Both the position numbers and the translations under genes were made by a program. Below are positions 1 through 43,235 of a stretch of DNA of 43,235 nt, piece by piece. The notes under the pieces are model-generated. The model saw only the letters and a program-made list of their open reading frames with translations. It did not search any database and was not told where the DNA came from. Source of the DNA: Candidatus Promineifilaceae bacterium (lineage in GTDB: Bacteria > Chloroflexota > Anaerolineae > Promineifilales > Promineifilaceae). Every line of letters begins with the position of its first letter. Within the stretch, counting starts at the first letter, position 1. The stretch covers positions 1-43,235 of the forward strand of contig JBAPRX010000684.1 of the NCBI GenBank assembly GCA_049281335.1, in the 5' to 3' direction.

Positions 1-1581
1 GGTTATGTTATCGCCGTCGGCAGCGCCGTCAATACCGTAGTTGGTTGTCCAACCACCATCGAGGGCAACTTTGACTTCATAGTCGCCAGCGGGAACATCA
101 AAGGTAGCGGAGTAGGTTCCGTCGCCATTGTCTGTCAAAGCAGACGCTTCACAGGCCGGGTCCCAGTCGCCTTCGCAGAGACCGGAAGCAGCTTGCCAGG
201 AGCCAGGAACGTTGACCATGCCAGTGGCCGAACCACCGATTAGATCGCGGATTTGGGTGGCAGCGTTGTCAAGCGCATCAGCCGGGTCTTGTTCGCCGTT
301 CAGGATCAGGGTAAAGGCATCGCCCCAACTACCCCAAACAGAACCCATTTCAGGGATGGCGGGCATGTTTTCGGCCGTTGCACCAACCTCACCGAAAGAA
401 GCCAGGTCAGGATCAGTGCTAACAATATCGAGCCAGGCAGAGGGACGATTACTTCCATCGGCTAAGACTTGCATTGCTTCCGGGGTTGCCAGAACTTCGG
501 TCAAAAAGGTCTGGGCAAGGAGAACGTTGTCGCCTAAGGCGTTAACAGCAAAGCCCCAGACACCGCGGAAAGGTACACCCGCCTGAGTCTCGGAGGGGAA
601 GCTGGTGATGGCGTAAGGAACGCCGGAGGTACGAATGCGATCCAATGCCCAGGGACCAGCCATCAGGAAAGGTACTTCGCCGGTTTCAAACTGAAGGTGA
701 GCGGTGTCCCAATCAGCGCTGCTGCTGATGTAGCCAGCTTCAACGTTTTCCTGGATAAAGTTACCGGCAGCAATCATGCCTTCGCTATCAATACCAACAT
801 CATTGGGGTTGTAAGTTCCGTCATCGTTGAGGCCGAAGACGTAACCACCAAAAGCCGTTTGAAGCGGGAAGGCATCATAGGTCGTACCGGACAGGGCTAG
901 AGCGTAGGTTGCATCGCCGCTGTCAACCAGGGCGGAACCCATCTCGATTAGTTCATCCCACGTTTGTGGCGGGGTAGCAATCATGTCAGTGTTGTAGAAG
1001 AAGGCCATATTTTCAACGGTGTAGGGTAAGGCGTACAGTTGGCCGTCGAAGGTCATGGCCTGAAGAGCATCAGGAGCGAATTGATCGGCCTTGTCACCAA
1101 GATCAATTGGGGCTAACAAACCACTTTCCACAAAACCACCCAGGCGGTCATGGGGGAACATGGCGATGTCAGGGCCTTCACCGGCAGGTACAGCGATGGG
1201 GAACTGGTCATTGCGGTCTGGTACGTTTTCGACGACGAGGCCAATGCCATATTCTTCCTCGAATGGGCCAATGAGTTCACTTAGAACTGGGGTAAGCAGA
1301 TCGTCGGACCAGATGGTGATGACGGTGTCGAATTCGGAGGCCGCTGCTTCGGTTGGCTCTGCCATCACTTCTTCAGTTGGCTCTGCCATTGGTTCTTCAG
1401 TTGGCTCCATCATCTCTTCAGTTGGCTCTACCATGACCTCTTCGGTCGGTGCTTCGGTGGGTTCGGCCGCCGGTGCTTCGGTTGGGGCTGTGGTTGGTTC
1501 GGCTTCATTGCCACCACAAGCGGTTAAAATAAGTGCTCCGATTAACATCAGAGCAAGTAAGACGGAAAGTTTTTTAAACAT
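1..1581 (-). CDS. MalE-like maltose/maltodextrin ABC transporter substrate-binding lipoprotein with an extra C-terminal carbohydrate-binding-like domain; the 3' end runs off the window
   Basis: Absent from the ORF track because it has no in-window stop. ATG at 1581..1579 follows GGAGGAG. The N-terminus MFKKLSVLLALMLIGALILTACGG is a signal peptide plus lipobox. The body reads FPHDRLGGFVESGLLAPI, YALPYTVENMAFFYNTDMI, FLMAGPWALDRI and ENMPAIPEMGSVWGSWGDAF, colinear with the MalE family. My hand translation stays open down to base 1. Confidence 0.85.
   Translation of the reverse strand, partial: MFKKLSVLLALMLIGALILTACGGNEAEPTTAPTEAPAAEPTEAPTEEVMVEPTEEMMEPTEEPMAEPTEEVMAEPTEAAASEFDTVITIWSDDLLTPVLSELIGPFEEEYGIGLVVENVPDRNDQFPIAVPAGEGPDIAMFPHDRLGGFVESGLLAPIDLGDKADQFAPDALQAMTFDGQLYALPYTVENMAFFYNTDMIATPPQTWDELIEMGSALVDSGDATYALALSGTTYDAFPLQTAFGGYVFGLNDDGTYNPNDVGIDSEGMIAAGNFIQENVEAGYISSSADWDTAHLQFETGEVPFLMAGPWALDRIRTSGVPYAITSFPSETQAGVPFRGVWGFAVNALGDNVLLAQTFLTEVLATPEAMQVLADGSNRPSAWLDIVSTDPDLASFGEVGATAENMPAIPEMGSVWGSWGDAFTLILNGEQDPADALDNAATQIRDLIGGSATGMVNVPGSWQAASGLCEGDWDPACEASALTDNGDGTYSATFDVPAGDYEVKVALDGGWTTNYGIDGAADGDNIT
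1351..1506 (-). repeat. Imperfect tandem repeats encoding the Pro/Thr/Glu-rich linker after the lipobox
   Basis: The plus strand shows gttggctctgccatcacttcttca / gttggctctgccattggttcttca / gttggctccatcatctcttca / gttggctctaccatgacctcttc, then shorter ggt..gcttc units. Translated, these are EPTEE(V/M)M(A/V) repeats. Confidence 0.6.
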
Positions 1582-1704
1582 TGCTGTATTCTCCTCCACT
1601 AGAGTTTTATTAGCATATTCATTATTATTGAGGGAAGACTACCCTGGTGAATACGGTTTAACGACCATCGGTGATAGGGACATCACCTCCTTTCAATAGG
1701 ATAT

Positions 1705-2145
1705 TTATAAGTCTACATCGAGCCTTGAACGCAGGCTGCTTTTCAACTGCTGTAACCCTTCTAGCAGGTTATCTTTTTTAATATCTTCCAGGTCGCTAAA
1801 ACGCTCCTGGTTGTAGTCGCGGTGGGCAACCATAGCTTTTTTGCAAAGCATTTTGCCTTTTTCGCTTAGAAAGAGCCGTAATGTTCGGCCGTCTGTCTCG
1901 TGCGGCCGTCGAACTACCAGTTCGTCAGACTCCAACCCCTTGATAATCCGTGTGATGTTGCTTTTGTCACAGAGCATTAGATTGCTCAGTTCGCTAAACG
2001 AGATGCCGGGTTGTTCTAACAGGTGGAACAACGCATAGTATCGGGAGGGAGATAATTCATAATTGCTAAAAAAACGACGATCTCCATCATCGAGAATAAG
2101 GAAAATTTCGTTTAGGGTATTGTAAAGCATATGTGGATCGGACAT
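1705..2145 (-). CDS. MarR family transcriptional regulator
   Basis: The ORF-track protein contains a MarR winged-helix region (LMLCDKSNITRIIKGLESDELVVRRPHETDGRTLRLFLSEKG). The track start at 2205 is a TTG inside a palindrome, so I prefer the ATG at 2145 (MSDPHMLY). Confidence 0.85.
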   Translation of the reverse strand: MSDPHMLYNTLNEIFLILDDGDRRFFSNYELSPSRYYALFHLLEQPGISFSELSNLMLCDKSNITRIIKGLESDELVVRRPHETDGRTLRLFLSEKGKMLCKKAMVAHRDYNQERFSDLEDIKKDNLLEGLQQLKSSLRSRLDVDL

Positions 2146-2174
2146 AGTTAGGAACAAACTTAGTTGATAGCACA

Positions 2175-2209
2175 ATAGTTGACGTATCAACTGTTGATAC
2201 GTCAACTAT
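2175..2209. promoter_or_regulatory. Perfect 35-bp palindrome, candidate MarR operator
   Basis: ATAGTTGACGTATCAAC-T-GTTGATACGTCAACTAT (17+1+17, no mismatch) lies 30 nt upstream of the preferred MarR ATG. A related half-site, TAGTTGATA, is at 2161. Confidence 0.6.
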
Positions 2210-2292
2210 ATCATTTGCTAATTGAAGTGTCAAGTAGTTTACAGTTGAATTTTAACCGAATATTGAGATGTGACGAATGGTTTATAAGAATC

Positions 2293-2334: not shown

Positions 2335-4866
2335 CTACGCATCGCGGAGTTTGGCTCCTAACTGCCGTTCTAACTGTTGGACAAGGCGCTGGCGGTTTTT
2401 GCGGATTTCTTTGTCGGTCAGCGTTTTGTTGGGGGATTGGAAGGTCAGGTGATAGGCCAAACTCTTCTTACCCTCCGGGATCGATTTGCCTTCGTAGACG
2501 TCAAACAGGGCGACTTCTTTGAGCAGGTATCCCCCTGCTCTCTCAATGGTGGCCTGGACGTCAACGGCCGAAACGGACTTGTCCAAAATTAGCGCGATGT
2601 CTTCATGCACAGCCGGGAAGACCGGAATTGGTTCAATCCGGTGACGGTCGGGGATATGGTTCAAGACGAGTTCCAGATCAATCTCAGCCGCGATCACAGG
2701 CCACTCGCCGCGAATGTCGAATCCTTCAACGACGGCGGGATGAAGACGGCCGAGCCAGCCAATCTGCTCTTCGCCTAACAACAGGCGGGCGGTCTGGCCG
2801 GGTCGGAAGGTGGGGTGCTGGCCGGGTGTGACAGATAAGTCGTCCATGTGAAGGGCGTCAAAGAGGGACTCCAACACCCCTTTCATATCGTAGAAGTCTA
2901 TTTCTTCGGGGGTGTCGTCATCCTGCCAGTGGTTCTGTCCGCGGCGGCCCATCATAAGCAGGGCCAGACGGCGCAGTTCGTCTGGCAAAATGCCTTCTTC
3001 GCTGGCAAGGTAAATGAGGCCCAACTCGAAGATGGCAATACGATCACGATAGCGACTGTTGGCGGCGGCGACTTCCAGAACGGAGGCCAGGAGGCTGTGG
3101 CGCATGGCAACCCGGTCTACAGTGATGGGGTTGGTCAGGGTGACATAGGGGCGGTCGTCTGGGGAAACAATCCCATTGGGGAGGAGTTTGGCTTCACGTT
3201 CGGCCGTTGTCAGCCGGTAGGTGATGATCTCCTGCAAACCGAGTTCGGTCAGAATGTCCTTGATATGTTCCTCGCGGGTCAGGTCAAGATTGTTGCGCTG
3301 GGGCGGCAGGCTGTCGGCCATCTCCGTTGTGGGAATGCGATCATAGCCGTAGACACGGCAGACTTCTTCTACCAGGTCGTGTGTCCCTTCGATGTCCATG
3401 CGGTGATCAGGGGCCGTAACCAGCAGGTGGTCGCCCTGCTCCTCTACAGTGAACTCCAGCGATTCGAGCATGGTTTTGATTTCAGACTGGCTGGGGTGGA
3501 TGCCACCAATGCGAGCCACTTCTGCGGCCGTTAATTGGATGGCTTTGAGTTCCGGGGGATTGGGGTAGTAGTCCACAATTCCCTGGCGGACGGTTCCACC
3601 GGCATGGCGGCGCAGGAGTTCGGCCGCTCGTTTTGCACCCAACAATGCCTGGCTGGGGTGAACGCCCCGGCTGAACCGGAAACCGGCTTCGCTGGTGATT
3701 TTCAATGCGTTGGTGCTGCGGCGAATGTTGATGAAATTCCAGGCAGCCGCTTCCAGCAGAACATTGGTGGTCGTGTCGCTGATTTCGCTGTCGAGGCCAC
3801 CCATAATGCCGCCTAAACTGAGGGAACCGACCGGGTCGGTGACAAGGATGTTGAACGGCAGCAGGGTGTGTTCTTCGCCGTCCAGGGTGGTCAGGGTTTC
3901 GCCTTCGTAGGGCAGGCGGGTGTGAATATGAATGGGGCCGCCAGGATTGTATTCGTCGGCACGGCGGCGGAGGAAGTCGTAATCGAAGGTGTGGTTGGGC
4001 TGGCCCATTTCGAGCATGACGTAGTTGCTGATGTCCACTACGACGTTGATCGGCCGTTGGCCAGCCAATCGGAGGCGGCGCTGCATCCAGGCGGGGCTTG
4101 GTTTTTGCTCGACCCCTTCTATGACCATTGCCACAAAGCGGGGGTTCAGGTCGGGGCGGTCAGTGGTCAGCTTGATCTGCCCTTCGACCGGCGAGCCATC
4201 CATTTCAACAGTGTAGTCGGGTTCTCGAAGCGTCTGGCCGGTCAGGGCAGCTACTTCGCGGGCGACACCGACAATGGAGGCACAGCGAGCGATGTTGGGG
4301 ATGACTTCGATGTCCAGAACGGCGTCGCCCAGGAGGTCTTGGAGCGGCGTTCCGGCAGTGTAGTCGCCTTCCATAATCAGGATGCCTTCGTGTTCGGCGC
4401 TGATGCCCAGTTCTTTTTCGGAACAGAGCATACAGTGGTTGTAGATGCCGCGCAGACTGCGGCCTTTGAGGGTCATTTTGACCTGGCCTTCTTTGTGGCC
4501 GTCGTACAGGACAGCGCCTTCGAAGGCGAAGGGGGAGTAGAGGTTTTGGTCGGCCAGATTGTCTTGTCCCAGGTAGGGGAAGAGGTTGGGGGCGCCGGTT
4601 ACGACAACTTCTGGTTCATCACCACCATAGTCTACCATTGCCAGCACCAGACGGTCGGCATCGGGGTGAGGATTGACGTCTAAAATTCGGCCGAGAACGA
4701 GCTTTTCACGATCCCAGACAAGGCGGTTGAGATCGTTGCCGCCGGGGATGCCGATGTATTCGATGTTGGCAACCTCCAACCCGGCGATTGTGAGTCGCTC
4801 GGCCAGTTCTTCAACGGGCAGAACGACGTCAACGTATTCTTTTAACCAGCTTATGGGTACTTTCAT
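2335..4866 (-). CDS. pheT: Phenylalanine--tRNA ligase beta subunit
   Basis: 843 aa. The N-terminus MKVPISWLKEYVD with a tRNA-binding domain, followed by B3/4, B5 and an FDX-ACB-like C-terminus, is typical of PheT. GTGGAG lies 8 nt before the ATG. Confidence 0.97.
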   Translation of the reverse strand: MKVPISWLKEYVDVVLPVEELAERLTIAGLEVANIEYIGIPGGNDLNRLVWDREKLVLGRILDVNPHPDADRLVLAMVDYGGDEPEVVVTGAPNLFPYLGQDNLADQNLYSPFAFEGAVLYDGHKEGQVKMTLKGRSLRGIYNHCMLCSEKELGISAEHEGILIMEGDYTAGTPLQDLLGDAVLDIEVIPNIARCASIVGVAREVAALTGQTLREPDYTVEMDGSPVEGQIKLTTDRPDLNPRFVAMVIEGVEQKPSPAWMQRRLRLAGQRPINVVVDISNYVMLEMGQPNHTFDYDFLRRRADEYNPGGPIHIHTRLPYEGETLTTLDGEEHTLLPFNILVTDPVGSLSLGGIMGGLDSEISDTTTNVLLEAAAWNFINIRRSTNALKITSEAGFRFSRGVHPSQALLGAKRAAELLRRHAGGTVRQGIVDYYPNPPELKAIQLTAAEVARIGGIHPSQSEIKTMLESLEFTVEEQGDHLLVTAPDHRMDIEGTHDLVEEVCRVYGYDRIPTTEMADSLPPQRNNLDLTREEHIKDILTELGLQEIITYRLTTAEREAKLLPNGIVSPDDRPYVTLTNPITVDRVAMRHSLLASVLEVAAANSRYRDRIAIFELGLIYLASEEGILPDELRRLALLMMGRRGQNHWQDDDTPEEIDFYDMKGVLESLFDALHMDDLSVTPGQHPTFRPGQTARLLLGEEQIGWLGRLHPAVVEGFDIRGEWPVIAAEIDLELVLNHIPDRHRIEPIPVFPAVHEDIALILDKSVSAVDVQATIERAGGYLLKEVALFDVYEGKSIPEGKKSLAYHLTFQSPNKTLTDKEIRKNRQRLVQQLERQLGAKLRDA

Positions 4867-4931: not shown

Positions 4932-5957
4932 TTAGAACTGTTCGAGGAAGCGCAGGTCGTTGCCCCAGAAATAGCGAATGTCTTCGATGCCATATTTGAG
5001 CATGGCGATGCGTTCCGGCCCCATGCCGAAGGCGAAGCCGGAGTATTTTTTCGGGTCATAACCACCGTTGCGAAGAACGGTGGGGTGGACCATGCCGCAG
5101 CCCAAGATTTCCAGCCAGCCGCTGTATTTGCAAACCTGACAGCCGGAACCACCGCAGAGGATACATTCGACGTCCATCTCGGCGCTGGGTTCGGTGAAGG
5201 GGAAGTAGTTGGCTCGGAAACGGACGCTGCGATCCGCACCAAACATGCGCCGGGCGAAGTCGGTCAGGGTTCCTTTAAGGTCGGCCAGGGTGATATGTTT
5301 GCCGACAGCCAGCCCTTCGACCTGATGAAATTGTATTTCGCTGCGGGCGGTTATCTGTTCGTAGCGGTAGCACATCCCAGGCAGGATGACGCGGATGGGT
5401 TCGGGATAATAGGAGTGCATGGCGTGAATCTGGCCGGGGCTGGTGTGGGTCCGGAGGATGACGCCGGGCGTGACGGTATGAAAGGTGTCCCAAAGGTCGC
5501 GGGCCGGATGGTGCTGGGGAATGTTTAATAATTCGAAGTTGTATTCGTCGGTTTCAACATCGCGGCTGCGGTAAATCTGGAAGCCCATGTCGCCCCAGAT
5601 ACGGTAGATTTCCCGCAGGGTTTGGGTGGCGGGGTGGAGACGGCCGCGATACTGTTTCCGACCTGGTAAGGTGACGTCTATTCTTTCGGCCGTCATCTGG
5701 TCTTGCAGCTCTTTGGCGCGTACCTGGGCTAGTTGCCTGTCATAAGCGGCCTGTAGTTTTTGCTTGACTTCGTTGACGCGCTTGCCAAAGAGCGGCCGTT
5801 CTTCCGGGGTCAGTTTGCCAATCTGGCGGGTCATGAGAGTCACCTGGCCCTTGGGGCCGAGGGTTTCCCGGTACCAGCCTTCGAGGGCGGCGGAAGATGC
5901 AGCCGTTTGTAGGGCGGCTTGTTGGGTGTTTAGGATGGTTTCTAGTTGGTCTAACAT
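4932..5957 (-). CDS. pheS: Phenylalanine--tRNA ligase alpha subunit
   Basis: 341 aa with class II aaRS motifs (HPARDLWDTF, GMVHPTVL, AFGMGPERIAMLKYGI). AAGGA lies before the ATG. Confidence 0.97.
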   Translation of the reverse strand: MLDQLETILNTQQAALQTAASSAALEGWYRETLGPKGQVTLMTRQIGKLTPEERPLFGKRVNEVKQKLQAAYDRQLAQVRAKELQDQMTAERIDVTLPGRKQYRGRLHPATQTLREIYRIWGDMGFQIYRSRDVETDEYNFELLNIPQHHPARDLWDTFHTVTPGVILRTHTSPGQIHAMHSYYPEPIRVILPGMCYRYEQITARSEIQFHQVEGLAVGKHITLADLKGTLTDFARRMFGADRSVRFRANYFPFTEPSAEMDVECILCGGSGCQVCKYSGWLEILGCGMVHPTVLRNGGYDPKKYSGFAFGMGPERIAMLKYGIEDIRYFWGNDLRFLEQF

Positions 5958-6425: not shown

Positions 6426-7787
6426 ATGGATTCTACAGCAAACAACATGACCTTTGAAGATCGCCTGAAGCAGCTTCAGGATGCTTTGGAAGCGAACAAT
6501 ATAGAAGCGGCGCTGGCGGTTCTGGCGGAGATACAGGTTCCAGATCAGGCTGAACTGGTTGACGAGTTGGACCCTGAGGCACAAGTGCTGTTACTGCCGG
6601 AATTACAACCGGCAGATTCGGCCGATATTCTGGAAGAAATGGATGAGACGCGGGCGGCCGAACTGGTCGCCTCCCTACCCCATGCAGCAGCCGTTCGGAT
6701 TTTGGATGAGATGGAACCAGATGAAGCGGCCGATCTGTTGGGTGACCTGGAACCGGATCAGGCCCGTACCTTTCTGGCCCGGTTGGAAGATGCAGCAGAG
6801 ATTCGGCCGCTTTTGCTGCACCCTGACGACAGCGCCGGTGGTCTGATGACCTCTGAATATCTGGCGCTGCGACGACGGACGACTGCGGCCGACGCCCTGG
6901 CGGCGGTACGGGATTGGCAGCCTAAGACGAACAGATTGTCTGACCTCTTTGTGATTGATCGGGACGGGCTTTTATGCGGCGTGGTGTCGCTGCTGCAACT
7001 GGTGATGGCAAAACCGGCCGATCTGGTGATGGATTTGATGGACCCGGAGCCGACCTGGGCGGCTGTTGGCAGCGACCAGGAAACGGTTGCGAGGTTGTTC
7101 ACCCGTTATGATCTGCTGGCGCTGCCGGTTGTCAATGATGCCCACAAGCTGGTGGGTGTTATTACGATTGACGACGTGATTGACGTGTTGGAAGATGAGG
7201 CGACGGAAGACATCCAACGGTTGGGCGGCGCGGAGCCATTGGAACGGCCGTATCTGGATACGCCGGTCTTCAGCATTGCCCGAAAGCGGGTCGGCTGGCT
7301 GCTGCTGCTCTTTCTGACAGAAAGTCTGACCGGAAGCGTCCTGCGCCTGTTTGAAGGCGAACTGCAAGCGGTGGTGGCGCTCTCATTCTTTATTCCGCTG
7401 CTCATCGGCACGGGCGGGAATGCCGGTTCCCAGACGACCAGCACCATTATCCGGGCGCTGGCAGTGGGAGACATCCGGCTGCGGGATGCGGTGGCCTCTT
7501 TTTGGCACGAACTGCGGATTGGGCTGCTGCTGGCGGTTATTATGGCCGGGATTGCCTATGGACGGGCGCTGTTGTGGGGAACGACTCCGGCGCTGGCGAT
7601 GGCCGTTGCTATTTCTATTCTTACGATTATACTTTGGGCAAATAGTCTTGGTGCGCTGCTGCCTTTAGGCGCTGCCGCCCTAAAACTGGACCCAACTGTC
7701 GTTTCTGGCCCGGCGATGAGCACCCTGGTAGATGCGACCGGTTTGTTTATCTATTTCACCGTTGCACGGATAATAATTGGTCTGTAA
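6426..7787 (+). CDS. mgtE: Magnesium transporter MgtE
   Basis: MgtE N-domain, tandem CBS region and a C-terminal TM domain with IGTGGNAGSQTTSTIIRAL. GAGGAA lies 7 nt upstream of the ATG at 6426. The track start at 6411 is a TTG. Confidence 0.93.
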   Translation: MDSTANNMTFEDRLKQLQDALEANNIEAALAVLAEIQVPDQAELVDELDPEAQVLLLPELQPADSADILEEMDETRAAELVASLPHAAAVRILDEMEPDEAADLLGDLEPDQARTFLARLEDAAEIRPLLLHPDDSAGGLMTSEYLALRRRTTAADALAAVRDWQPKTNRLSDLFVIDRDGLLCGVVSLLQLVMAKPADLVMDLMDPEPTWAAVGSDQETVARLFTRYDLLALPVVNDAHKLVGVITIDDVIDVLEDEATEDIQRLGGAEPLERPYLDTPVFSIARKRVGWLLLLFLTESLTGSVLRLFEGELQAVVALSFFIPLLIGTGGNAGSQTTSTIIRALAVGDIRLRDAVASFWHELRIGLLLAVIMAGIAYGRALLWGTTPALAMAVAISILTIILWANSLGALLPLGAAALKLDPTVVSGPAMSTLVDATGLFIYFTVARIIIGL

Positions 7788-7827
7788 ATAACGGCCGATC
7801 CTGGCATTCTTGAAGCGAATAAGACAA

Positions 7828-9778: not shown

Positions 9779-10233
9779 TGAAACGATTAACTTTTCCCAA
9801 CCCTTTTCCCCACAGCCATCCTCCGGTTGAGGATGTCAATGCCCTTATTGAAGAACAGTCCACACGCGGTGAAAGAGCGGCCGATGTTGTTGCCAGAATT
9901 GTCGGCTCCTGGCATTTCATCGTTGGTCAAAGCATTCTGCTGGTGTTCTGGGTGATTTTGAATGTAACAGCCTGGATTCAGCATTGGGACCCCTACCCCT
10001 TTATCTTGATGAATCTGTTTATGTCTTTGCAGGCGGCTTTTACGGCTCCGGTGATTATGATGAGCCAGAACCGACAGACTTTCCGCGACCGGTTGGAGGC
10101 ACACCAGGATTATGAGGTGAATGAGAAGGCGGAGGTGGAGATTCGGGCTGTATTAGACCATCTTGAGGCCCAGAATGTGGCGCTGGCGGAGATTCACCGG
10201 CTGCTGGCGGAGCGGGAGGGAAAGGAGTCGTAA
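9775..10233 (+). CDS. DUF1003 family membrane protein
   Basis: WDPYPFILMNLFMSLQAAFTAPVIMMSQNRQTFRDR...NEKAEVEI is the characteristic DUF1003 core. Its ATG overlaps the upstream stop (ATGA). Confidence 0.8.
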   Translation: MMKRLTFPNPFPHSHPPVEDVNALIEEQSTRGERAADVVARIVGSWHFIVGQSILLVFWVILNVTAWIQHWDPYPFILMNLFMSLQAAFTAPVIMMSQNRQTFRDRLEAHQDYEVNEKAEVEIRAVLDHLEAQNVALAEIHRLLAEREGKES

Positions 10234-10314: not shown

Positions 10315-10785
10315 TTAAGCGGGGGTAAGTTCGGCTCTGACACGGCCGGCTTCAACGGCATCGAAACCGAGCAGCATTTTGTCTCTGGTGAGGTTTTCCA
10401 GGGGGAACCACTCCGGGCGGGCAGGGTTGTCGAAGTCTATCATTCCGGCAACACCGGCTGTTGAGCGTTTGAGGGCGTAGTAGAGGACTTCTAGCTGCCA
10501 GAGCTTGCCGTCATCGTCCAGCCAGTAGCCATCTTCTGCCAGGAGCAGGCCGGTGATGATGGGCAGTATTCCGGCTGCACCCTGGAAACAGTGCAAGACG
10601 GCCGCAGTGGGCGTTTCCCCAACATTAAGGACTTTGCCCGGCGGCTGCCAGAGGTCGCTGTTGTCATACGGCCGTAACAGAACCTGGTCATTCTCGATCA
10701 GAATACCATAAGCAGCGGGACGGATTCCCACCGGCGGCCCCGGAATGTCTATTGGCTGTCCATCTTTATCAAAACAAAGCACCAC
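10315..10785 (-). CDS. Nudix-fold protein with a degenerate Nudix box
   Basis: PPGKVLNVGETPTAAVLHCFQGAAGI aligns to the Nudix box GX5EX7REUXEEXGU, but RE and EE are replaced by HC and GA. GTG start after GAGGAA. Confidence 0.5.
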   Translation of the reverse strand: MVLCFDKDGQPIDIPGPPVGIRPAAYGILIENDQVLLRPYDNSDLWQPPGKVLNVGETPTAAVLHCFQGAAGILPIITGLLLAEDGYWLDDDGKLWQLEVLYYALKRSTAGVAGMIDFDNPARPEWFPLENLTRDKMLLGFDAVEAGRVRAELTPA

Positions 10786-11569: not shown

Positions 11570-11997
11570 TCCTGATCCTCCGGTACGTCAATGGCTTTGG
11601 GCAGGTCAGGAACGGCTCCATTTTCTTGTTCCTCTTTCGGCCGTGATACGGGTTTGTAGCTTCTCTTACCTTCTACCAATGCCCGCCCTTCTTCAGCAGC
11701 ATCTTTCGTCTCCTGAATAAAAGCTCTTGGAACCTGATTTAGCTCCTTGCGAAGACTTTGGACTTCTTTTTGCAGTTCTCGGACTTCTTGCATGGTGGAT
11801 TTCATCTGGCCGTCGTCCAGAGAGTCCAGTTCGGCATTTAGTTGACGGGCAAATTCGCGGGAGATCGTCTGTAACTTTGCTGTCCAGTAGCCCAGAGTGC
11901 GGGCAACCTGCCGGATGCGGTGCGGCCCCATCACCAGTCCAGCAAGCACTAAAATAACGATCAGCTCCGAAAAACCGATACCAAAAAAGCTGTCCAT
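11566..11997 (-). CDS. TatA/TatB/TatE family translocase subunit (TatB-like length)
   Basis: MDSFFGIGFSELIVILVLAGLVMGPHRIRQVARTLG is a Tat TM segment plus amphipathic helix, followed by a charged tail. Confidence 0.85.
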   Translation of the reverse strand: MDSFFGIGFSELIVILVLAGLVMGPHRIRQVARTLGYWTAKLQTISREFARQLNAELDSLDDGQMKSTMQEVRELQKEVQSLRKELNQVPRAFIQETKDAAEEGRALVEGKRSYKPVSRPKEEQENGAVPDLPKAIDVPEDQE

Positions 11998-37159: not shown

Positions 37160-37167
37160 AACTTCCT

Positions 37168-37196: not shown

Positions 37197-37203
37197 TCCA
37201 CCT

Positions 37204-37962
37204 TTAATCCTGTATGACCGACCATAACCTCTCTCCGCCTACCGCATTAATATAGGCTCGAACCTGGGATGCCAACGCCTGTTGATCCTCAAAAAAGGTG
37301 CTAATTTGGGACTTGAAGCATTGGATAGCGTTAATTCTGGTGGTGATGGCTTTTTCGGTCAGTTCTACAACCCTGGCTACCCATCGGCCGTCTTCCTGGG
37401 CTATCTGTTGTTCGGCCGAGAAGGTGTCAGCATAGGGGTAATCTTCGTAGTAAAGCAAGTTGGCGGTTGAAAAACAGCATTCCGCTGCCTGCCGGGTTAG
37501 CTGGTGGTCGACATGGTGGCCGAGTGTCAGCGGCAAGAAAAGTTGCTCGCAGGATGGGAGCTGGGCCATTCTTTTGGAGAGCTTCTCTACCAGGGCGTTT
37601 TCGGCCGGATCAATTTCTCCAAAGATATCCTGGTTGGAGGTGTAATACGGCCGTTGTGTCACAGAGTCAACGCGGTAAATACAGTCCAAAAAGTCCCAGT
37701 GCTGCCAATCTGCACCCATGACATGGCAGGCAGCCACATCTTCCGTCCGTCTTGACTGTACAACCTCGTCTAGCAACTGCCATCGTTGGTGCAGGGATTG
37801 AGCATATTCAGAAGGAGTCCTGCCAACCGGATTGCCCGCCATAATAGTGACAACGAGAGCGGTTTCTCCCTTCTCCGTCAACTCGGAAATCTGGCCGCCA
37901 CAAGAAAGGGCAGCATCATCTAAATGAGGGGAAAGGTAAATAGCCTGGTAATGGTCTTTCAT
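37204..37962 (-). CDS. PIG-L/LmbE family deacetylase
   Basis: IYLSPHLDDAALSCGG (PIG-L signature) and LGHHVDHQ. ATG at 37962 (MKDHYQ), with an alternative TTG at 37995. Confidence 0.8.
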   Translation of the reverse strand: MKDHYQAIYLSPHLDDAALSCGGQISELTEKGETALVVTIMAGNPVGRTPSEYAQSLHQRWQLLDEVVQSRRTEDVAACHVMGADWQHWDFLDCIYRVDSVTQRPYYTSNQDIFGEIDPAENALVEKLSKRMAQLPSCEQLFLPLTLGHHVDHQLTRQAAECCFSTANLLYYEDYPYADTFSAEQQIAQEDGRWVARVVELTEKAITTRINAIQCFKSQISTFFEDQQALASQVRAYINAVGGERLWSVIQD

Positions 37963-38152: not shown

Positions 38153-38632
38153 ATGTCTAAACAACTCACACATATTGATGAAGCTGGTCAGGCCAGGATG
38201 GTGGATGTCGGTTACAAGCCGGACACTGAACGGGTTGCGGTTGCACGTGGGGCAGTTTCTATGAAGCCGGATACTTTGCAGCTTATTATAGAAGGAAATA
38301 TGAAAAAAGGGGATGTTTTGACCGTTGCCCAACTGGCAGGTGTGATGGCAGCAAAGAAAACCAGTGATCTCATTCCCCTTTGCCACCCATTGTTGTTAAG
38401 TCACATTGACGTGAGATGCGAACCAAACACGGCCGAAAGCCGGGTTGATATTGAAGCCACCGTTCGCCTGCGAGGAAAGACAGGAGTAGAGATGGAAGCG
38501 TTGACGGCCGTTACCGTTGCCGGGCTGACAATTTACGATATGGCAAAAGCTGTAGATAGAACTATGCAGATTACAGAAGTTCGGCTGGTTCACAAATCAG
38601 GCGGCAAAAGCGGCACCTTCACGGCAACTTGA
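38153..38632 (+). CDS. moaC: Cyclic pyranopterin monophosphate synthase MoaC
   Basis: [15 protein letters not shown] ... [13 protein letters not shown] ... GVEMEALTA. 159 aa. Confidence 0.95.
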
Positions 38633-38724: not shown

Positions 38725-39441
38725 TTGAATTTCCAGATTCGATTGTTCGCAACATTGAAAGATCGGGCCGGGCAGGGACAGATTCAAGTATCAGTTCCCG
38801 CCCCAGCGACTGTTGAGGCATTGTTGCGGGAAACGGCCGAACAGTTTCCCCAACTGGCCTCCGCTTTGCCAACTGTTTTGGTTTCAGTCAATAAAGCCTA
38901 TGCTGGGAAAGAGACGCCTTTACAGTCCGGTGACGAGGTGGCCTTGTTTCCACCGGTCAGCGGTGGTGCAGAAGCGCCCCATCCGACTTTCTTTGCCATT
39001 ACTCATGAAGAAATGGACCTAAACGCCATCCGGGCCAGCATTGGCGGGCCGGATATTGGGGCGGTTGTCACCTTCTCCGGGTCCGTTCGAGGGGAAACGG
39101 AACGAGAAGGACTCCCCCCTGAGACGCTCTATCTGGAATATGAAGCCTATGAGGAAATGGCAACGGTAAAGATGGCCCAGGTTGCCCGCGAGATATGGCA
39201 GCAGTGGCCGCTGGTAAAAGGTGTTGCCATTGTCCAACGGATTGGTAAACTGGACATAGGTGAAATAACGACGATCGTCGCCTGCGCTTCTGCCCATCGA
39301 GATCAGGGAGTGTTCGAGGCGGCTCGTTATGGCATTGACCGTTTGAAGCAAATTGTGCCGGTGTGGAAAAAGGAAGTTGGCCGGGACAACAGCTTGTGGG
39401 TTGAAGGCGATTATCGGCCGACAGAGGCTGATAATGCCTGA
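38725..39441 (+). CDS. Fused molybdopterin synthase MoaD-MoaE
   Basis: The MoaD part runs from (M)NFQIRLFATLKDRAG to GDEVALFPPVSGG. It is followed directly by a MoaE part (VVTFSGSVRGE...YEAYEEMA...IVACASAHRD...IVPVWKKE). The TTG start at 38725 after GAGGAT is preferred; the track start at 38629 would add 32 non-descript residues. Confidence 0.82.
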   Translation: MNFQIRLFATLKDRAGQGQIQVSVPAPATVEALLRETAEQFPQLASALPTVLVSVNKAYAGKETPLQSGDEVALFPPVSGGAEAPHPTFFAITHEEMDLNAIRASIGGPDIGAVVTFSGSVRGETEREGLPPETLYLEYEAYEEMATVKMAQVAREIWQQWPLVKGVAIVQRIGKLDIGEITTIVACASAHRDQGVFEAARYGIDRLKQIVPVWKKEVGRDNSLWVEGDYRPTEADNA

Positions 39442-39608
39442 TCGGCCGCAAAACCAATTAGTGGCCGTCCGCAAATAAGGGCGTATTCATGTGGTGCGGA
39501 ATTGCGCGGACGGTTTAGGAGTAAGCGGCCTCCTGATTAGATATTTTATTGCCGGTCGCTTACTTAATTAAAAAAGCACAACTGATCACACCTTTAAGGT
39601 GTTCAAAG

Positions 39609-40250
39609 ATGTACGTGGAAAATACCTTTAGGAGGGATTACGAAATTATGAAACGGAACAAGCTTATCATGGGATTAGCGCTCTTCTTACTGGCTCCTCC
39701 CATGCAAGAAAGCACCGGGTTCCTGGGCTTTGACTGGTGGATTTGGATACTCGCTGGTGTCCTCTTATTACTTCTGCTTTTGATTATTGGCTACGTGCTT
39801 CAAAATGAACCAGGCCCGCCGATACCTGAACGCGAGTCAAGGATGTACATAACGCCTTCAACAGCCGCCAGAACCCAGGTGGAAGAACTTGAGAAACCAG
39901 AAGCACCAGCGCAACCAGAACCTGCTCCCCAACCAGCGGAAGAGTCGGAAGTGGAAGAGCCAGCAGCGGAGCCGGTTCCTGGTAAGCCAGCGCCGAAACC
40001 GGAGAATTTAACCCGAATTGAAGGTATTGGGCCGAAGGTTGCCGGACTGCTCAATGAAGCTGGCATTACTACTTTTACTGCCCTCGCTGAAACGGATGTC
40101 ACACGGCTGAAAGAGATTTTAGAGAAAGCCGAGCTTCAATTCATGGACCCCGGAAGCTGGCCCGAACAGGCGGCGTTGGCTTCCAAAGGCGATTGGGAAG
40201 CCTTTGAAAAACTGACGGACGAATTAAAAGGCGGCCGTCAGACTAGCTGA
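39609..40250 (+). CDS. Membrane-anchored protein with a Pro/Glu-rich linker and a C-terminal helix-hairpin-helix domain
   Basis: KRNKLIMGLALFLLAPP plus a second TM (WWIWILAGVLLLLLLLIIGYVL), a PEAPAQPEPAPQPAEE linker, then NLTRIEGIGPKVAGLLNEAGITTF (HhH). The ATG at 39609 follows AAGGTG. An alternative ATG is at 39648. Confidence 0.6.
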   Translation: MYVENTFRRDYEIMKRNKLIMGLALFLLAPPMQESTGFLGFDWWIWILAGVLLLLLLLIIGYVLQNEPGPPIPERESRMYITPSTAARTQVEELEKPEAPAQPEPAPQPAEESEVEEPAAEPVPGKPAPKPENLTRIEGIGPKVAGLLNEAGITTFTALAETDVTRLKEILEKAELQFMDPGSWPEQAALASKGDWEAFEKLTDELKGGRQTS

Positions 40251-40267: not shown

Positions 40268-41521
40268 ATGGATAGAAATAATGGATACCACTCTCACCGG
40301 GTTGTCATAACCGGCACAGGCGTTATCACACCGGTCGGCAATAATGTGCCTGATACATGGGCAGCTATCTTGGCCGGTAAATCTGGGTTTGGAGATTTCA
40401 CCTTTACCAATCGAGGCGAACATACCTCCGGGGGCGTTTGCGAAATCAAAGATTTTGATCCGGCAGAGGTAATCGGCCGTCGAGATGCTCGCCGACGGGA
40501 TCGTTACCAACAATTGGCAACGGTGGCCGCCGGTGAGGCCATGACCCAATCTGGCCTGAAAATCACTGACGAGAACCGCGAACGGATCGGAATTTACCTG
40601 GGAACCGGTGTTGGCGGTATTCAAACTCTCGTCGAACAAGAACATGTCGTGATGGAGAGCGGCTTGCGACGTCTCAGCCCGTTTGGTATTACGATGATTA
40701 TGCCCAACGGGGCCGGTGGGATGCTGGCAATTGACTACGGCATTCACGGCCCCAGCCCGACGATCACAACGGCTTGTGCTGCTGGCGTAGACGCCATCGG
40801 CCATGCTTTCCGGGCGGTACGGCGCGGAGAGTTGGACGCCGTTCTGACCGGCGGAGCGGAATGTGTGCTGACCTCTGTCGCCATCGGCGGCTTTGAACGA
40901 GCCGGGGCAACTTCCTCCAAGCGTTCCAACACGCCCCAACCCTTTGACAAGAACCGGGATGGTTTAATTGTCGGGGAAGGGGCAGGAATGCTGATCATTG
41001 AAACGCTGGAACACGCCCAGGCTCGCGGCGCGACGATTCTAGGCGAGATCGTGGGCTATGGTCAGACAACAGATGCTTATCATATTACCGCCCCGGCAGA
41101 AGGGGGCGAAGGGGCTGCCCGTGCTATCCGGCAAGCATTGCAAGACGCCAATCTGGAAGCGGCCGATGTGGATTACGTCAGCGCTCATGGAACAGCCACC
41201 CCCTTGAATGACCAGTATGAGACGATGGCGATTAAAGCCGCGCTGGGGGAACATGCTTATGATGTCGCCGTCAGCTCTACCAAGTCCATGACCGGCCACA
41301 TTATGGGTGCGACCGGGGCCATCGAGAGTGTCTTCTGCACATTGGCAATCCAGCAAAATATCGCCCCGCCAACCATTAATTACGAAACAGCCGATCCTGA
41401 ATGTGACCTGGATTATGTCCCCAACCATTCACGGCAGATGCCGATCCGAGTCGCGATCAACAATGCCTTTGGTTTTGGCGGACATAATGCGGTGTTGGTG
41501 TTTAAGGAGTTTGTGCCGTAG
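40268..41521 (+). CDS. fabF: 3-oxoacyl-[ACP] synthase II
   Basis: HRVVITGTGVITPVG, active-site ITTACAAG, and SAHGTATPLND plus GHIMGATG (His-His). The C-terminus is FGFGGHNAVLVF. Confidence 0.95.
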   Translation: MDRNNGYHSHRVVITGTGVITPVGNNVPDTWAAILAGKSGFGDFTFTNRGEHTSGGVCEIKDFDPAEVIGRRDARRRDRYQQLATVAAGEAMTQSGLKITDENRERIGIYLGTGVGGIQTLVEQEHVVMESGLRRLSPFGITMIMPNGAGGMLAIDYGIHGPSPTITTACAAGVDAIGHAFRAVRRGELDAVLTGGAECVLTSVAIGGFERAGATSSKRSNTPQPFDKNRDGLIVGEGAGMLIIETLEHAQARGATILGEIVGYGQTTDAYHITAPAEGGEGAARAIRQALQDANLEAADVDYVSAHGTATPLNDQYETMAIKAALGEHAYDVAVSSTKSMTGHIMGATGAIESVFCTLAIQQNIAPPTINYETADPECDLDYVPNHSRQMPIRVAINNAFGFGGHNAVLVFKEFVP

Positions 41522-41594: not shown

Positions 41595-41610
41595 TCAATA
41601 AATTAACTTG

Positions 41611-42357
41611 ATGGACGATTTGAAAGAACTGGAAGTACGGTTGGGGGTGCAGTTTAACGACTATTCGTTGTTGACACGGGCTGTGACCCACCGTTCTTAC
41701 CTGAACGAAAATCTGGAACAATCTCTGGAAGACAATGAGCGCCTTGAGTTTTTGGGCGATGCCGTTCTGGATTTTGTCGTTGGCGCATATCTGTACCATC
41801 GTTACCCGGAAATGAAAGAGGGGGAGTTAACGATGCTGCGGGCGGCATTAGTGCGGACGGAGACGCTGGCGGAGTTTGCCCGCGAGGTGTCGCTGGGAGA
41901 GTATCTGCGCCTGGGATATGGGGAAGCGGAAAGCGGCGGCCGAGATCGTCCGGCAATTCTGTGCGGCGCTTTCGAAGCCACCATAGGCGCTATCTTTCTG
42001 GACAAAGGTCTGCCCGTTGTGGAGGAGTTGGTAACTTCCCTCATTGAGCCAGCATTAACGGAGATATTGGCAGAAGCAGCCCACAAAGATGCCAAAAGTG
42101 GCTTCCAAATTTGGGCGCAGGGTCGTTATAACATTACCCCCCGATATAAAGTCATTGCGGCCGAAGGGCCGGATCATGCCAAAGTCTTTACTGTTGCTGT
42201 GATGCTAGGGGACGAGATTTGGGGGGAAGGAACCGGACGCAGTAAACAGAATGCGGCTCAGGAAGCGGCGGCGGTCGCTCTGGAAAAAGCTGAAACGATT
42301 TTGGACGACGAGGAATTGGAAACGGCCGATGAAGTTGAGGGTATGTTTCCTTCTTGA
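41611..42357 (+). CDS. rnc: Ribonuclease III
   Basis: NERLEFLGDAVLDF is the RNase III signature. It is followed by a C-terminal dsRBD (PDHAKVFTVAVMLGDEIWGEGTGRSKQNAAQEAA). Confidence 0.93.
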   Translation: MDDLKELEVRLGVQFNDYSLLTRAVTHRSYLNENLEQSLEDNERLEFLGDAVLDFVVGAYLYHRYPEMKEGELTMLRAALVRTETLAEFAREVSLGEYLRLGYGEAESGGRDRPAILCGAFEATIGAIFLDKGLPVVEELVTSLIEPALTEILAEAAHKDAKSGFQIWAQGRYNITPRYKVIAAEGPDHAKVFTVAVMLGDEIWGEGTGRSKQNAAQEAAAVALEKAETILDDEELETADEVEGMFPS

Positions 42358-42359
42358 CC

Positions 42360-43199
42360 ATGCCCAAACGCATCTTAATCACCGGTGGCAGCAGCTATCT
42401 CGGTCAGCATTTACTCCCCCTTGCCTGCAAACAATATCAGGTTCTTTATACCTACTTTCACCACAAGCCACCCACAGCGCCGACTGACGGCCGTCCATTA
42501 GACCTCCGCGATTTTGAGGCTGTTGGTCGACTGGTATCGGCCTGGCAGCCAGAGGCGATTATTCATCTGGCCGGTTCCGACCGTTCGGAAGATATGTCGG
42601 CCGTTATCTGTCAGGGCGCGGAAAACATCGTTCAGGCAGCCCAGGGGGTCAATGCTCGCCTCATCCATCTCTCAACCGATGTGCTATTTGACGGCCGTCA
42701 TGGGCCGTATACCGAATCATCCCCGCCCAGCCCCATCCACCCATACGGAGAAGCGAAAGCAGCGGCCGAATCTATCGTCGCCGCCTATGCCAACCACGTC
42801 ATTGTTCGCACCTCGCTCATTTACAGCCTGACCGTCATGGACTATGCCACCAGATGGCTGGTATCGGCGCTGGAATCAGGGAAAGCCGTTACCCTGTTTG
42901 ACGATCAGTTTCGCAATCCCGTCTGGACGGATACACTGTCATGGGCCTGCCTGGAACTGGTGGAACTGGATTTTCGTGGCATTTTGAATGTCGCTGGAAG
43001 CCAGGTTTTGAATCGGGCTGAATTTGGAATGCGAATGCTTGATTGGTGGAATGTTCAGGAACGGGCAACGCTCTCTACCGGCCCCTCTCCGGCCACCTGG
43101 CCCAAAGACTGCCGCCTGGATGTCTCGCTGGCAGGGCAGGTGTTGTTGACCAATATGGCCGGGGTGGACACTGTTCTGGCTGCCCATAATTCATCATGA
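42360..43199 (+). CDS. RmlD-like NAD(P)-dependent sugar-nucleotide reductase (dTDP-4-dehydrorhamnose reductase family)
   Basis: ILITGGSSYLGQHL (Rossmann fold), LIHLSTDVLFDG and HPYGEAKAAAE (YxxxK). An alternative TTG start at 42354 overlaps the rnc stop. Confidence 0.72.
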   Translation: MPKRILITGGSSYLGQHLLPLACKQYQVLYTYFHHKPPTAPTDGRPLDLRDFEAVGRLVSAWQPEAIIHLAGSDRSEDMSAVICQGAENIVQAAQGVNARLIHLSTDVLFDGRHGPYTESSPPSPIHPYGEAKAAAESIVAAYANHVIVRTSLIYSLTVMDYATRWLVSALESGKAVTLFDDQFRNPVWTDTLSWACLELVELDFRGILNVAGSQVLNRAEFGMRMLDWWNVQERATLSTGPSPATWPKDCRLDVSLAGQVLLTNMAGVDTVLAAHNSS

Positions 43200-43235
43200 G
43201 AGCGCGGTTACAATCTTTTCCCTTCCTCTTTCCGG

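Follow-up and report, generated by a model that had tools for sequence, protein, structure and literature searches.

Why does a single six-base palindrome occur 120 times in 43 kb of housekeeping genes? The question is raised by contig JBAPRX010000684.1 (assembly GCA_049281335.1) from a Candidatus Promineifilaceae bacterium of the class Anaerolineae, phylum Chloroflexota, in which the word CGGCCG is scattered through coding and non-coding DNA. The whole stretch analyzed, 43,235 nucleotides, is referred to here as the window. A preliminary description of this DNA, made from its letters alone, had compared the abundance of CGGCCG with that of HIP1, the highly iterated palindrome (HIP) of cyanobacteria. 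The analysis described here indicates that CGGCCG is very probably a HIP-like element maintained at the DNA level. A link to a cytosine methyltransferase is put forward more tentatively, as a candidate only. The reading that we favor as a whole (a HIP-type palindrome of an Anaerolineae clade, kept by a force acting on the DNA, with a methyltransferase as its likely agent) is held with slightly better than even confidence.

The exact count of CGGCCG in the window was 120, one per 360 bp, which makes it the top-ranked hexamer; the next-commonest hexamers are its own overlapping neighbors. The GC content of the window is 51.7% and the excess over composition is about 8-fold. Markov models of orders 0, 1, and 2 predicted 13.0, 15.3, and 31.7 copies, and those of orders 3 and 4 predicted 47.8 and 98.9 copies, respectively. 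The order-4 expectation equals N(CGGCC) × N(GGCCG) / N(GGCC), or 180 × 190 / 346, and two-thirds of the CGGCC and GGCCG pentamers are the CGGCCG hexamer itself. The order-4 figure of 99 does not refute the excess because pentamers that mostly consist of the hexamer inflate high-order models. When the 120 copies were set aside, the sub-words matched their expectations (GGCC 226 versus 240, CGGCC 60 versus 60.6, and GGCCG 70 versus 60.6), which indicated that the hexamer is the enriched unit. Composition was consequently rejected as the cause: orders 0 to 2 give only 13 to 32 copies, and the values from orders 3 and 4 (48 and 99) are circular. The preliminary description had estimated, by eye, about 120 copies or one per 360 bp, against 10 to 20 expected from composition. 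The exact count and the order-0 and order-1 values agree with these estimates, and none of the 26 example coordinates that it gave is more than 10 nt away from an actual copy, 11 of them being exact. It had also named a count near the order-3 or order-4 expectation as evidence against an excess; the values obtained were 48 and 99 versus 120 observed, and order 4 comes close only through the hexamer-dominated pentamers.

CGGCCG was the sole over-represented six-base palindrome in the window. Most others were avoided, some entirely. With expectations of about 9 to 25 each, TGGCCA, CTGCAG, and CGATCG were found once, GGCGCC three times, and GCCGGC four times, and there were no copies of CAGCTG, GGGCCC, CCCGGG, or GCGCGC. 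Past restriction pressure usually leaves behind avoidance of this kind. Among the four palindromic words of the form NGGCCN, three were avoided and one was hyper-abundant. The bases next to CGGCCG follow the bias DCGGCCGH, as had been proposed from inspection, with C at position −1 in 7 of the 120 copies and G at position +1 in 7 of the 120. Beyond one base on either side no conserved flank was found, and the surrounding sequences were varied.

The copies, located by exact match, are listed below. The strand is given as '.' for all of them. For coding copies the frame is shown by spaces between codons, and "same site" means that a copy is present at the orthologous position in a relative, the relatives being designated by the numbers of their loci (L001 and so on).

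372..377 and 1464..1469: sugar-binding protein gene, both nCG GCC Gnn
1886..1891 (nnC GGC CGn) and 1903..1908 (CGG CCG): marR
2565..2570, 3201..3206, 3525..3530, and 3621..3626: pheT, nCG GCC Gnn
2747..2752 and 4688..4693 (nnC GGC CGn) and 4051..4056 (CGG CCG): pheT
5641..5646 (nnC GGC CGn), 5687..5692 (nCG GCC Gnn), and 5793..5798 (CGG CCG): pheS
6619..6624, 6655..6660, 6727..6732, 6886..6891, and 7015..7020: mgtE, nCG GCC Gnn
6804..6809 and 7245..7250: mgtE, CGG CCG
7792..7797: non-coding, immediately after mgtE
7935..7940 and 9483..9488 (nCG GCC Gnn) and 8917..8922 (nnC GGC CGn): permease gene
9878..9883: DUF1003 gene, nCG GCC Gnn
10343..10348 (nnC GGC CGn), 10599..10604 (nCG GCC Gnn), and 10669..10674 (CGG CCG): each in a hypothetical gene
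11638..11643: hypothetical gene, CGG CCG
12024..12029: nusB, nCG GCC Gnn
12896..12901: asp23-like gene, nnC GGC CGn
13082..13087, 13310..13315, and 13664..13669 (nnC GGC CGn), 13336..13341 (CGG CCG), and 13590..13595 (nCG GCC Gnn): fabG
14281..14286 (CGG CCG) and 14418..14423 (nCG GCC Gnn): fabD
14821..14826: rpmF (L32), CGG CCG
15431..15436: hypothetical gene, nCG GCC Gnn
16167..16172 (CGG CCG) and 16261..16266 (nnC GGC CGn): coaD
16551..16556, 17184..17189, and 18198..18203 (CGG CCG) and 17002..17007 and 17131..17136 (nnC GGC CGn): recG
17069..17074, 17660..17665, 18641..18646, and 18683..18688: recG, nCG GCC Gnn
19472..19477 (nnC GGC CGn) and 19506..19511, 19749..19754, and 19881..19886 (nCG GCC Gnn): degV
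20044..20049 and 21169..21174 (nCG GCC Gnn) and 20163..20168, 20721..20726, 21393..21398, and 21567..21572 (nnC GGC CGn): fakA-like gene
22279..22284: rpmB (L28), nnC GGC CGn
22439..22444: non-coding, in a terminator-like hairpin, CCGGCCGcaagGCCGG followed by a T-run
22608..22613, 23070..23075, and 23211..23216 (nCG GCC Gnn), 22867..22872 (CGG CCG), and 23336..23341 (nnC GGC CGn): GHMP kinase gene
23477..23482 and 24254..24259: ubiA-like gene, CGG CCG
24366..24371 and 25199..25204: non-coding
25984..25989: uvrA, nnC GGC CGn; same site in L086, L081, L093, L094, L095
26011..26016: uvrA, nnC GGC CGn; same site in L086, L081, L093, L094, L095
26116..26121: uvrA, nnC GGC CGn; same site in L086, L081, L094, L095, L001
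26410..26415: uvrA, nnC GGC CGn; same site in L086, L081, L094
26741..26746: uvrA, nCG GCC Gnn; same site in L086, L081, L093
26907..26912: uvrA, CGG CCG; same site in L086, L081, L095
27236..27241: uvrA, nCG GCC Gnn; same site in L086, L081, L093, L001
27854..27859: uvrA, nCG GCC Gnn; same site in L086, L081, L094, L001
27877..27882: uvrA, nnC GGC CGn; same site in L086, L081, L094, L095, L001
28004..28009: uvrA, nCG GCC Gnn; same site in L086, L081, L093, L094, L001
29151..29156: relA/spoT, nnC GGC CGn; same site in L086
29339..29344: relA/spoT, CGG CCG; same site in L086, L081
29508..29513: relA/spoT, nnC GGC CGn; same site in none of the sampled relatives
29589..29594: relA/spoT, nnC GGC CGn; same site in L093, L094
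29725..29730: relA/spoT, nCG GCC Gnn; same site in none of the sampled relatives
30543..30548: relA/spoT, nnC GGC CGn; same site in L086
30883..30888: relA/spoT, nCG GCC Gnn; same site in L086, L093, L094
31513..31518: response regulator gene, CGG CCG; same site in L086, L081, L094
32307..32312 and 32526..32531: FHA gene, nnC GGC CGn; both same site in L086, L081
33181..33186: VWA gene, nnC GGC CGn; same site in L081, L094
33706..33711: VWA gene, nnC GGC CGn; same site in none of the sampled relatives
33917..33922: VWA gene, nCG GCC Gnn
34497..34502: PP2C gene, nnC GGC CGn; same site in L086, L081, L094
34513..34518: PP2C gene, nCG GCC Gnn; same site in L094
35913..35918: Ser/Thr kinase gene, nnC GGC CGn; same site in L086, L094
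36407..36412: Ser/Thr kinase gene, CGG CCG; same site in L086, L081, L094
36618..36623: Ser/Thr kinase gene, nnC GGC CGn; same site in L086, L081
37385..37390: PIG-L gene, nnC GGC CGn; same site in none of the sampled relatives
37413..37418: PIG-L gene, nCG GCC Gnn; same site in L086
37602..37607: PIG-L gene, nCG GCC Gnn; same site in L086, L081, L094
37648..37653: PIG-L gene, CGG CCG; same site in L086
38430..38435 and 38505..38510: moaC, nCG GCC Gnn
38834..38839 (nCG GCC Gnn) and 39415..39420 (CGG CCG): moaD-moaE
39443..39448: non-coding, immediately after moaD-moaE
40232..40237: helix-hairpin-helix protein gene, nnC GGC CGn
40474..40479 (nnC GGC CGn) and 41160..41165 (nCG GCC Gnn): fabF
41937..41942 (nnC GGC CGn) and 42158..42163 and 42323..42328 (nCG GCC Gnn): rnc
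42488..42493 and 42692..42697 (nnC GGC CGn) and 42598..42603 and 42763..42768 (nCG GCC Gnn): rmlD-like gene

The contribution of protein coding to the excess was assessed with a codon-aware null in which synonymous codons were permuted while every protein and the overall codon usage were kept (500 shuffles). The coding sequences carried 113 copies, while the shuffled ones carried 24.2 ± 4.6, with a maximum of 37 in 500. The frames CGG CCG, nCG GCC Gnn, and nnC GGC CGn held 22, 50, and 41 copies versus 3.1, 11.7, and 9.4 in the shuffles, an enrichment of 4 to 7 times in each. The word was used as CGG CCG at 22 of 42 Arg-Pro pairs, as nnC GGC CGn at 41 of 63 x-Gly-Arg sites, and as nCG GCC G at 50 of 139 [SPTA]-Ala-[VADEG] sites; overall, 113 of the 244 places permitted by the proteins (46%) carry CGGCCG. 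Codon, amino acid, or dipeptide usage as the cause was ruled out by the synonymous and codon-order shuffles. That codon and dipeptide bias would be insufficient had been anticipated in the preliminary description from the two fabF copies at 40474 (nnC GGC CGn) and 41160 (nCG GCC Gnn), which are in different frames as it stated, and from non-coding copies at 7792, 22439 (in a terminator stem), 24366, and 39443. All of these were found, and 25199 is an additional non-coding copy.

Four small genes were added to the gene set and two of them, rpmF and rpmB, hold a copy, which brings the totals to 115 coding and 5 non-coding copies (7792, 22439, 24366, 25199, and 39443). In the 3,698 bases of non-coding DNA (41% GC) these 5 copies compare with an order-1 expectation of 0.36 (Poisson P = 4e-5). 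Intragenic copies make up 96% of the total and are found in 36 of the 41 genes, with no clusters. The coefficient of variation (CV) of the spacing is 0.85, and the variance/mean ratio in 2-kb bins is 0.59, a slight evenness that is not significant. One of the five non-coding copies (22439) is in a terminator-like stem and the other four are not. The palindrome itself is the basis of this hairpin, located at 22431–22460 in the gap that separates rpmB from the GHMP kinase gene; its sequence is CCGGCCGcaagGCCGG followed by TTTTTT. Among all proteins of the window the dipeptide Gly-Arg was counted 72 times versus 55.7 expected (z = 2.4) and Arg-Gly 40 times (z = −2.2), and there were 43 Arg-Pro and 30 Pro-Arg pairs. 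The asymmetry favors the direction that permits the word, a weak hint that the proteins themselves have been nudged.

The distribution of the excess was followed in two samples of relatives. The distant one consisted of 80 UvrA loci from GTDB species representatives; closer relatives were collected by protein search and contig look-ups in NCBI, ENA, and JGI assemblies, with loci of 13–23 kb. Among the 80 GTDB loci only the closest, L001 (79% identity), has an excess of CGGCCG, and the other 79 are nowhere near it. In four other Anaerolineae (L003, L005, L009, and L010) the word was found 0–1 times versus 11–22 expected, a near-absence that seems to point to CGGCCG-specific restriction elsewhere in this class. 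By the codon-aware null the excess was present in all ten species-level lineages sampled with UvrA proteins 79–92% identical (NCBI, ENA, JGI, and GTDB assemblies), and codon and amino acid usage leave it unexplained in nine relatives too. The observed and expected numbers were 42 versus 9.0 ± 2.5 in L086, 88 versus 32 ± 4.2 in L081, 94 versus 26.9 ± 4.7 in L094, 28 versus 8.5 ± 2.8 in L093, and 47 versus 19.4 ± 3.9 in L097. The excess also spans the non-syntenic flanks of the relatives' loci. An assembly artifact was ruled out because the relatives come from independent assemblies. The excess of CGGCCG is thus a trait of one clade, with UvrA at least about 79% identical and a GC content of 50–61%.

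Within this clade the word varies from lineage to lineage. The bare hexamer is the form found in the window, L086, and L094, and the copies in L081 prefer C-rich flanks. In L001 and L096 (about 22 kb each) the octamer palindrome ACGGCCGT was counted 35 times versus 0.38 expected and 50 times versus 0.68 expected, respectively; the codon-aware figures were 32 versus 3.4 and 43 versus 4.9. The Ardenticatenaceae scaffold L095, from a metagenome-assembled genome (MAG), has 53 copies of CCGGCCGG versus 1.85 expected. Most of these are part of the decamer CCCGGCCGGG, since C precedes the word in 39 of 53 and G follows it in 38 of 53, and the extension CCCCGGCCGGGG was found 10 times in 22.9 kb. The L095 locus contains a run of N. 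In L093 and L097 both CGGCCG and TGGCCA are enriched and TGGCCG/CGGCCA is raised with respect to the order-1 expectation, which defines the degenerate palindrome YGGCCR. TGGCCA was found 32 times versus 7 expected in L093, 36 versus 8 in L097, and 41 versus 13 in L095, and it was near-absent from the window (1 versus 16) and from L086 (1 versus 5). A second candidate palindrome in L096, ATAGCTAT, was rejected since it belongs to a tandem repeat, an intergenic array at 16035–16250 of ten 23-bp units, each with ATAGCTAT as its core.

Ten syntenic genes (window 25,365–37,995) were aligned by codons with those of L086 (about 80% nucleotide identity) and L081 (about 68%). Copies were found at the same position for 24 of the 31 window copies in L086 and 19 of the 31 in L081, and all 10 uvrA copies are common to the three, with uvrA nucleotide identities of 77–83%. 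The 78 outgroup UvrA genes use CGGCCG in 69 of 292 contexts with the same amino acids. The amino acid contexts of the uvrA copies at 27236 (Thr-Ala-Asp) and 26907 (Arg-Pro) occur in none of the 78 outgroups. A synonymous-site test was then restricted to four-fold third positions inside the word with unchanged amino acids. Between the window and L086, 39 of 42 such positions were identical (background 50%, codon-matched expectation 28.4, Fisher P = 4e-9), and between the window and L081, 31 of 35 (background 38%, codon-matched expectation 21.0, Fisher P = 1e-9). The test covered motif positions 2 to 6, each of which is a third codon position in some frame, and all of them were conserved; position 1 is outside its reach. 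Polymorphism among the strains L086 to L092 had no power in this respect: none of 45 variable columns was in the word, with only 0.8 expected.

The same alignments revealed turnover. Every lineage has private copies and lacks some of the copies common to its relatives; the former are likely to be gains and the latter losses. One-off variants at orthologous sites, polarized ones included, fall on all six positions of the word. The pattern is one of equilibrium: the word is made and retained by some force, and ordinary mutation erodes it. The aligned copies in conserved housekeeping genes show neither indels nor a longer repeat around them. A mobile or repeated element was rejected as the cause on the grounds that there is no extended repeat and that the copies align inside conserved genes. 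A repeat of the repetitive extragenic palindromic (REP), bacterial interspersed mosaic element (BIME), or miniature inverted-repeat transposable element (MITE) type was likewise discarded, as the copies are mostly intragenic, are aligned without indels, and show no conservation past ±1 base.

Taken together, the proposal of the preliminary description that CGGCCG is a HIP-like iterated palindrome is sustained by the codon-independent excess in coding and non-coding DNA, and the synonymous conservation, the clade restriction, and the longer variants add support. Its term "genome-wide" holds to the extent seen, namely the 43-kb contig and the 13–23 kb loci of the relatives. As to the cause, that description had suggested a methylation- or repair-biased process, or use as a recognition sequence for recombination, uptake, or repair, which are treated here as candidate explanations. 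What the data show is a force on duplex DNA, blind to reading frame, symmetric between the strands, and specific to the clade, that both generates the word and retains it. Selection for the density of sites, a repair bias tied to the sequence, or a combination of the two could supply this directional force. It would oppose ordinary mutational decay, and that opposition would account for nearly half of the protein-tolerated places carrying CGGCCG. In the proposed mechanism genomes of the clade would encode a sequence-specific protein that reads the word, and the word would be methylated and subject to biased repair. The short palindrome, the degenerate form YGGCCR, and the symmetric flank extensions in relatives suggest that the target may be recognized by a dimeric, type-II-like protein that binds or modifies DNA. 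Short or degenerate palindromes and symmetric extensions resemble the specificities of dimeric type-II-like enzymes. The most likely agent would be a chromosomal cytosine methyltransferase with EagI/CfrI-type specificity. Either mismatch correction or selection would be linked to the methylated sites, in line with what has been proposed for HIP1 and the "alternate HIPs" of cyanobacteria.

A methyltransferase is favored for three reasons. In cyanobacteria, a highly over-represented palindrome is always accompanied in the genome by a methyltransferase that can modify it, while sisters holding enzymes of this kind usually show depletion of the site (PMC4390886); a like contrast between rich and depleted genomes is seen between this clade and its sisters. 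Furthermore, CGGCCG contains the G-C step required by Elhai's "GmeC" ratchet model, and the dialects (CGGCCG, YGGCCR, ACGGCCGT, and CCCGGCCGGG) resemble changes of enzyme specificity.

Several observations weigh against this reading. The window yielded no gene for a methyltransferase, a Vsr protein, or a restriction enzyme, nor was there one among the called genes of the relatives' loci, with the exception of a type I system in L081. Simple patch repair of the Dcm/Vsr type predicts a strong loss of one T-containing neighbor. By the codon-aware null, however, CGGTCG/CGACCG was only weakly low (20 versus 29.1, a ratio of 0.69, z = −1.8), and the other deamination neighbors were at expectation (CGGCTG/CAGCCG 40 versus 35.4 and TGGCCG/CGGCCA 62 versus 56.3). 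Protection of a single methylated C is no explanation either, because the conservation and the one-off variants span the positions of the word. The spacing of the copies over 43 kb is only marginally more even than random, and the view of this genome is limited to those 43 kb.

Among the other explanations, the one that survives best, although it is unlikely, is a DNA-uptake or transfer signal. DNA carrying the word would be preferentially taken up and recombined, the word would spread by molecular drive, and it would drift into "dialects." A 2026 preprint proposes such a role for HIP1, citing methylation-dependent enhancement of transformation (10.64898/2026.06.24.733823). The density of about one copy per 0.4 kb in coding and non-coding DNA, the conservation of sites between species, and the common core shared by the lineage variants are all consistent with an uptake signal. 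Dialects of the DNA uptake sequence (DUS) are lineage variants around a common core. ComEA-type DNA receptors have a membrane-anchored helix-hairpin-helix architecture, and the window encodes a membrane-anchored helix-hairpin-helix protein (39549–40250) whose likeness to ComEA is one of architecture. Nonetheless, known uptake sequences are non-palindromic 9–12-mers, a 6-mer gives little discrimination, and a terminator-type inverted repeat was found at only one of the five non-coding copies.

Somewhat less probable still is a binding site for a nucleoid-organizing or chromosome-maintenance protein, kept purely by selection with no methylation or repair bias. The synonymous conservation across the tested positions (2–6), the even spread without clusters (bin variance/mean 0.59, CV 0.85), and the symmetric extensions in relatives, which fit a dimeric binding protein, agree with such a site, and the conservation of HIP1 and its periodicity on a 10–90 kb scale have been read in this manner (PMC5861425). 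But no candidate protein is known, one copy per 360 bp is denser than known architectural sites, and the new sites of each lineage require a generating force or positive selection on every site.

A role at the RNA level, whether through recognition by an RNase or an RNA-binding protein or through pairing between copies, is very improbable. A palindrome reads alike in every mRNA whatever the strand of the gene, a property that makes strand symmetry non-discriminating, and any two copies are able to pair. However, there are intergenic copies, including some between divergent or convergent genes, all frames are enriched equally, no Rfam family or structured RNA was found in the window, and in the case of HIP1 no evidence of a role in RNA or peptides was found (PMC5861425). 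Finally, a by-product of composition, of codon, amino acid, or dipeptide usage, or of REP/MITE-type DNA is refuted and has practically no probability left, since, even though Ala and Gly are preferentially encoded by GCC and GGC, respectively, and the order-4 Markov value is 98.9 versus 120 observed, the synonymous shuffle yields 24 ± 4.6 copies (maximum 37) versus 113, all three frames and the non-coding DNA are enriched, the sub-words are at expectation outside the hexamer, and copies with varied flanks align in housekeeping genes without indels or a longer repeat.

The surroundings of the copies are ordinary genes. The window, which is a whole metagenomic contig, has about 41 housekeeping genes, among them pheST, mgtE, tatC, nusB, fabG, fabD, rpmF, coaD, recG, degV, a fakA-like gene, rpmB, uvrA, relA/spoT, moaC, moaD-moaE, fabF, and rnc, together with a cluster (Ser/Thr kinase-PP2C-VWA-FHA-response regulator). 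The relatives of its UvrA belong to the class Anaerolineae (Chloroflexota), the nearest named ones being "Anaerolineae bacterium SG8_19," Candidatus Promineifilaceae, and Ardenticatenaceae MAGs, and this UvrA was found in a protein collection with five close cluster members. Exact-sequence look-ups of PheT (2335–4866) and RecG (16488–18974) returned no record, and no tRNA genes or Rfam families were found in the window. The cluster at 28985–37995 adjoins uvrA and is conserved in the clade (L081, L086, L093, L094, and L097), with the order PIG-L deacetylase, Ser/Thr kinase with PQQ beta-propeller, PP2C phosphatase, VWA, FHA, 80-aa protein, response regulator, and RelA/SpoT. Two small conserved open reading frames (ORFs), 32019–32261 and 28452–28754 (minus strand), of 80 aa and 100 aa, have no Pfam match and are 89% and 82% identical, respectively, to their counterparts in L086; the 100-aa product has weak CBM48/AMPK1_CBM matches in relatives. 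The protein encoded at 39549–40250 (plus strand) combines a hydrophobic segment at the N-terminus with a helix-hairpin-helix domain (HHH_5) at the C-terminus and has a low-complexity linker of Pro, Glu, and Ala. The first gene, 1–1581 (minus strand), is truncated by the start of the contig and codes for a sugar-binding lipoprotein (SBP_bac_8) that has a pullulanase X25 domain at its C-terminus and a linker rich in Thr, Glu, Pro, and Ala close to its N-terminus. The long ORFs at 128–586 and 1091–1699, opposite to this gene, were discarded as spurious shadows.

What HIP1 does and how it arose have been argued over for about thirty years, the contending ideas being a methylation-coupled repair ratchet, selection on chromosome structure, and a DNA uptake signal, and all the evidence coming from one phylum. 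The chances appear evenly balanced that HIP-type palindromes are not peculiar to cyanobacteria and that an uncultured clade of Anaerolineae has a system of its own, with CGGCCG as the core and the four dialects named above. We found no report of an abundance of CGGCCG, ACGGCCGT, or CCGGCCGG in Chloroflexi in the literature, the coverage of which was incomplete. If this proposal is correct, the dialects would imply a recognition protein that co-evolves with the word, and the clade would provide an independent second system in which comparative genomics can look for the genes that accompany the palindrome, be they for a methyltransferase, a repair nuclease, or uptake machinery. A second, unrelated clade would allow the gene sets of palindrome-rich genomes to be compared with those of palindrome-poor sisters, and the dialects are a built-in test, as any change in the word should be accompanied by a change in the specificity domain of the protein responsible. 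At a practical level, CGGCCG marks contigs of the clade and could help in binning, and its local absence could flag recently acquired DNA.

The enriched words are the targets of known enzymes: EagI, Eco52I, and XmaIII recognize CGGCCG, and CfrI and EaeI recognize YGGCCR. Restriction systems normally cause avoidance of their sites, as seen with the other palindromes in the window, whereas CGGCCG is in excess. No simpler route from methylation to over-representation is known than the Dcm/Vsr system of E. coli (CCWGG), in which the site is kept or enriched through correction of its T:G mismatches to C:G. Its effect is modest and accompanied by strong depletion of the T-containing neighbor, while CGGCCG has a 5–8-fold excess, a weakly low neighbor, and conservation that is not confined to one position of the word. 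The DUS and the uptake signal sequence (USS) resemble CGGCCG in that they occur about once per kb in and between genes, are maintained by drive, and form lineage dialects around a core. However, the DUS/USS of Neisseriaceae and Pasteurellaceae are non-palindromic 9–12-mers, often paired in terminators and with a known receptor, a form different from that of a 6-base palindrome with varied flanks and a single copy in a terminator-like hairpin.

The closest parallels are the cyanobacterial palindromes. The alternate HIPs, GGCGCC in Calothrix PCC 7103, rCCGGy in Oscillatoria PCC 10802, and GCsGC in Cyanothece PCC 7822, are like CGGCCG and YGGCCR in being type II-like words of 5–6 bases, some of them degenerate, with a very large excess in one lineage. 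Relatives that bear the matching enzymes are depleted of the alternate HIPs (PMC4390886), and CGGCCG is near-absent from some other Anaerolineae. They are sporadic in single strains, whereas CGGCCG is shared by, and conserved in position across, many species (UvrA identity down to 79%). HIP1 itself, GCGATCGC, differs in sequence and phylum: its core CGATCG occurs once in the window (10–13 expected), which leaves room for at most one GCGATCGC, and its hosts are cyanobacteria rather than Chloroflexota. The HIP1 octamer is 15–300-fold in excess, compared with 8-fold for the CGGCCG hexamer and about 30–90-fold for the octamer and decamer variants of the relatives, and HIP1 has known cognate methyltransferases, while none was found here among the genes of the window or the called genes of the relatives' loci. 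The likenesses are extensive. Both are GC-rich palindromes present in all frames and in non-coding DNA, with a density of about one per 0.4–3 kb for HIP1, and both show conservation at orthologous and synonymous sites beyond neutral expectation, confinement to a clade, and variants that interchange between lineages (PMC4390886, PMC5861425). The features by which membership of the HIP class can be tested, namely excess, independence from codon usage, presence in non-coding DNA, and synonymous conservation, were all found for CGGCCG.

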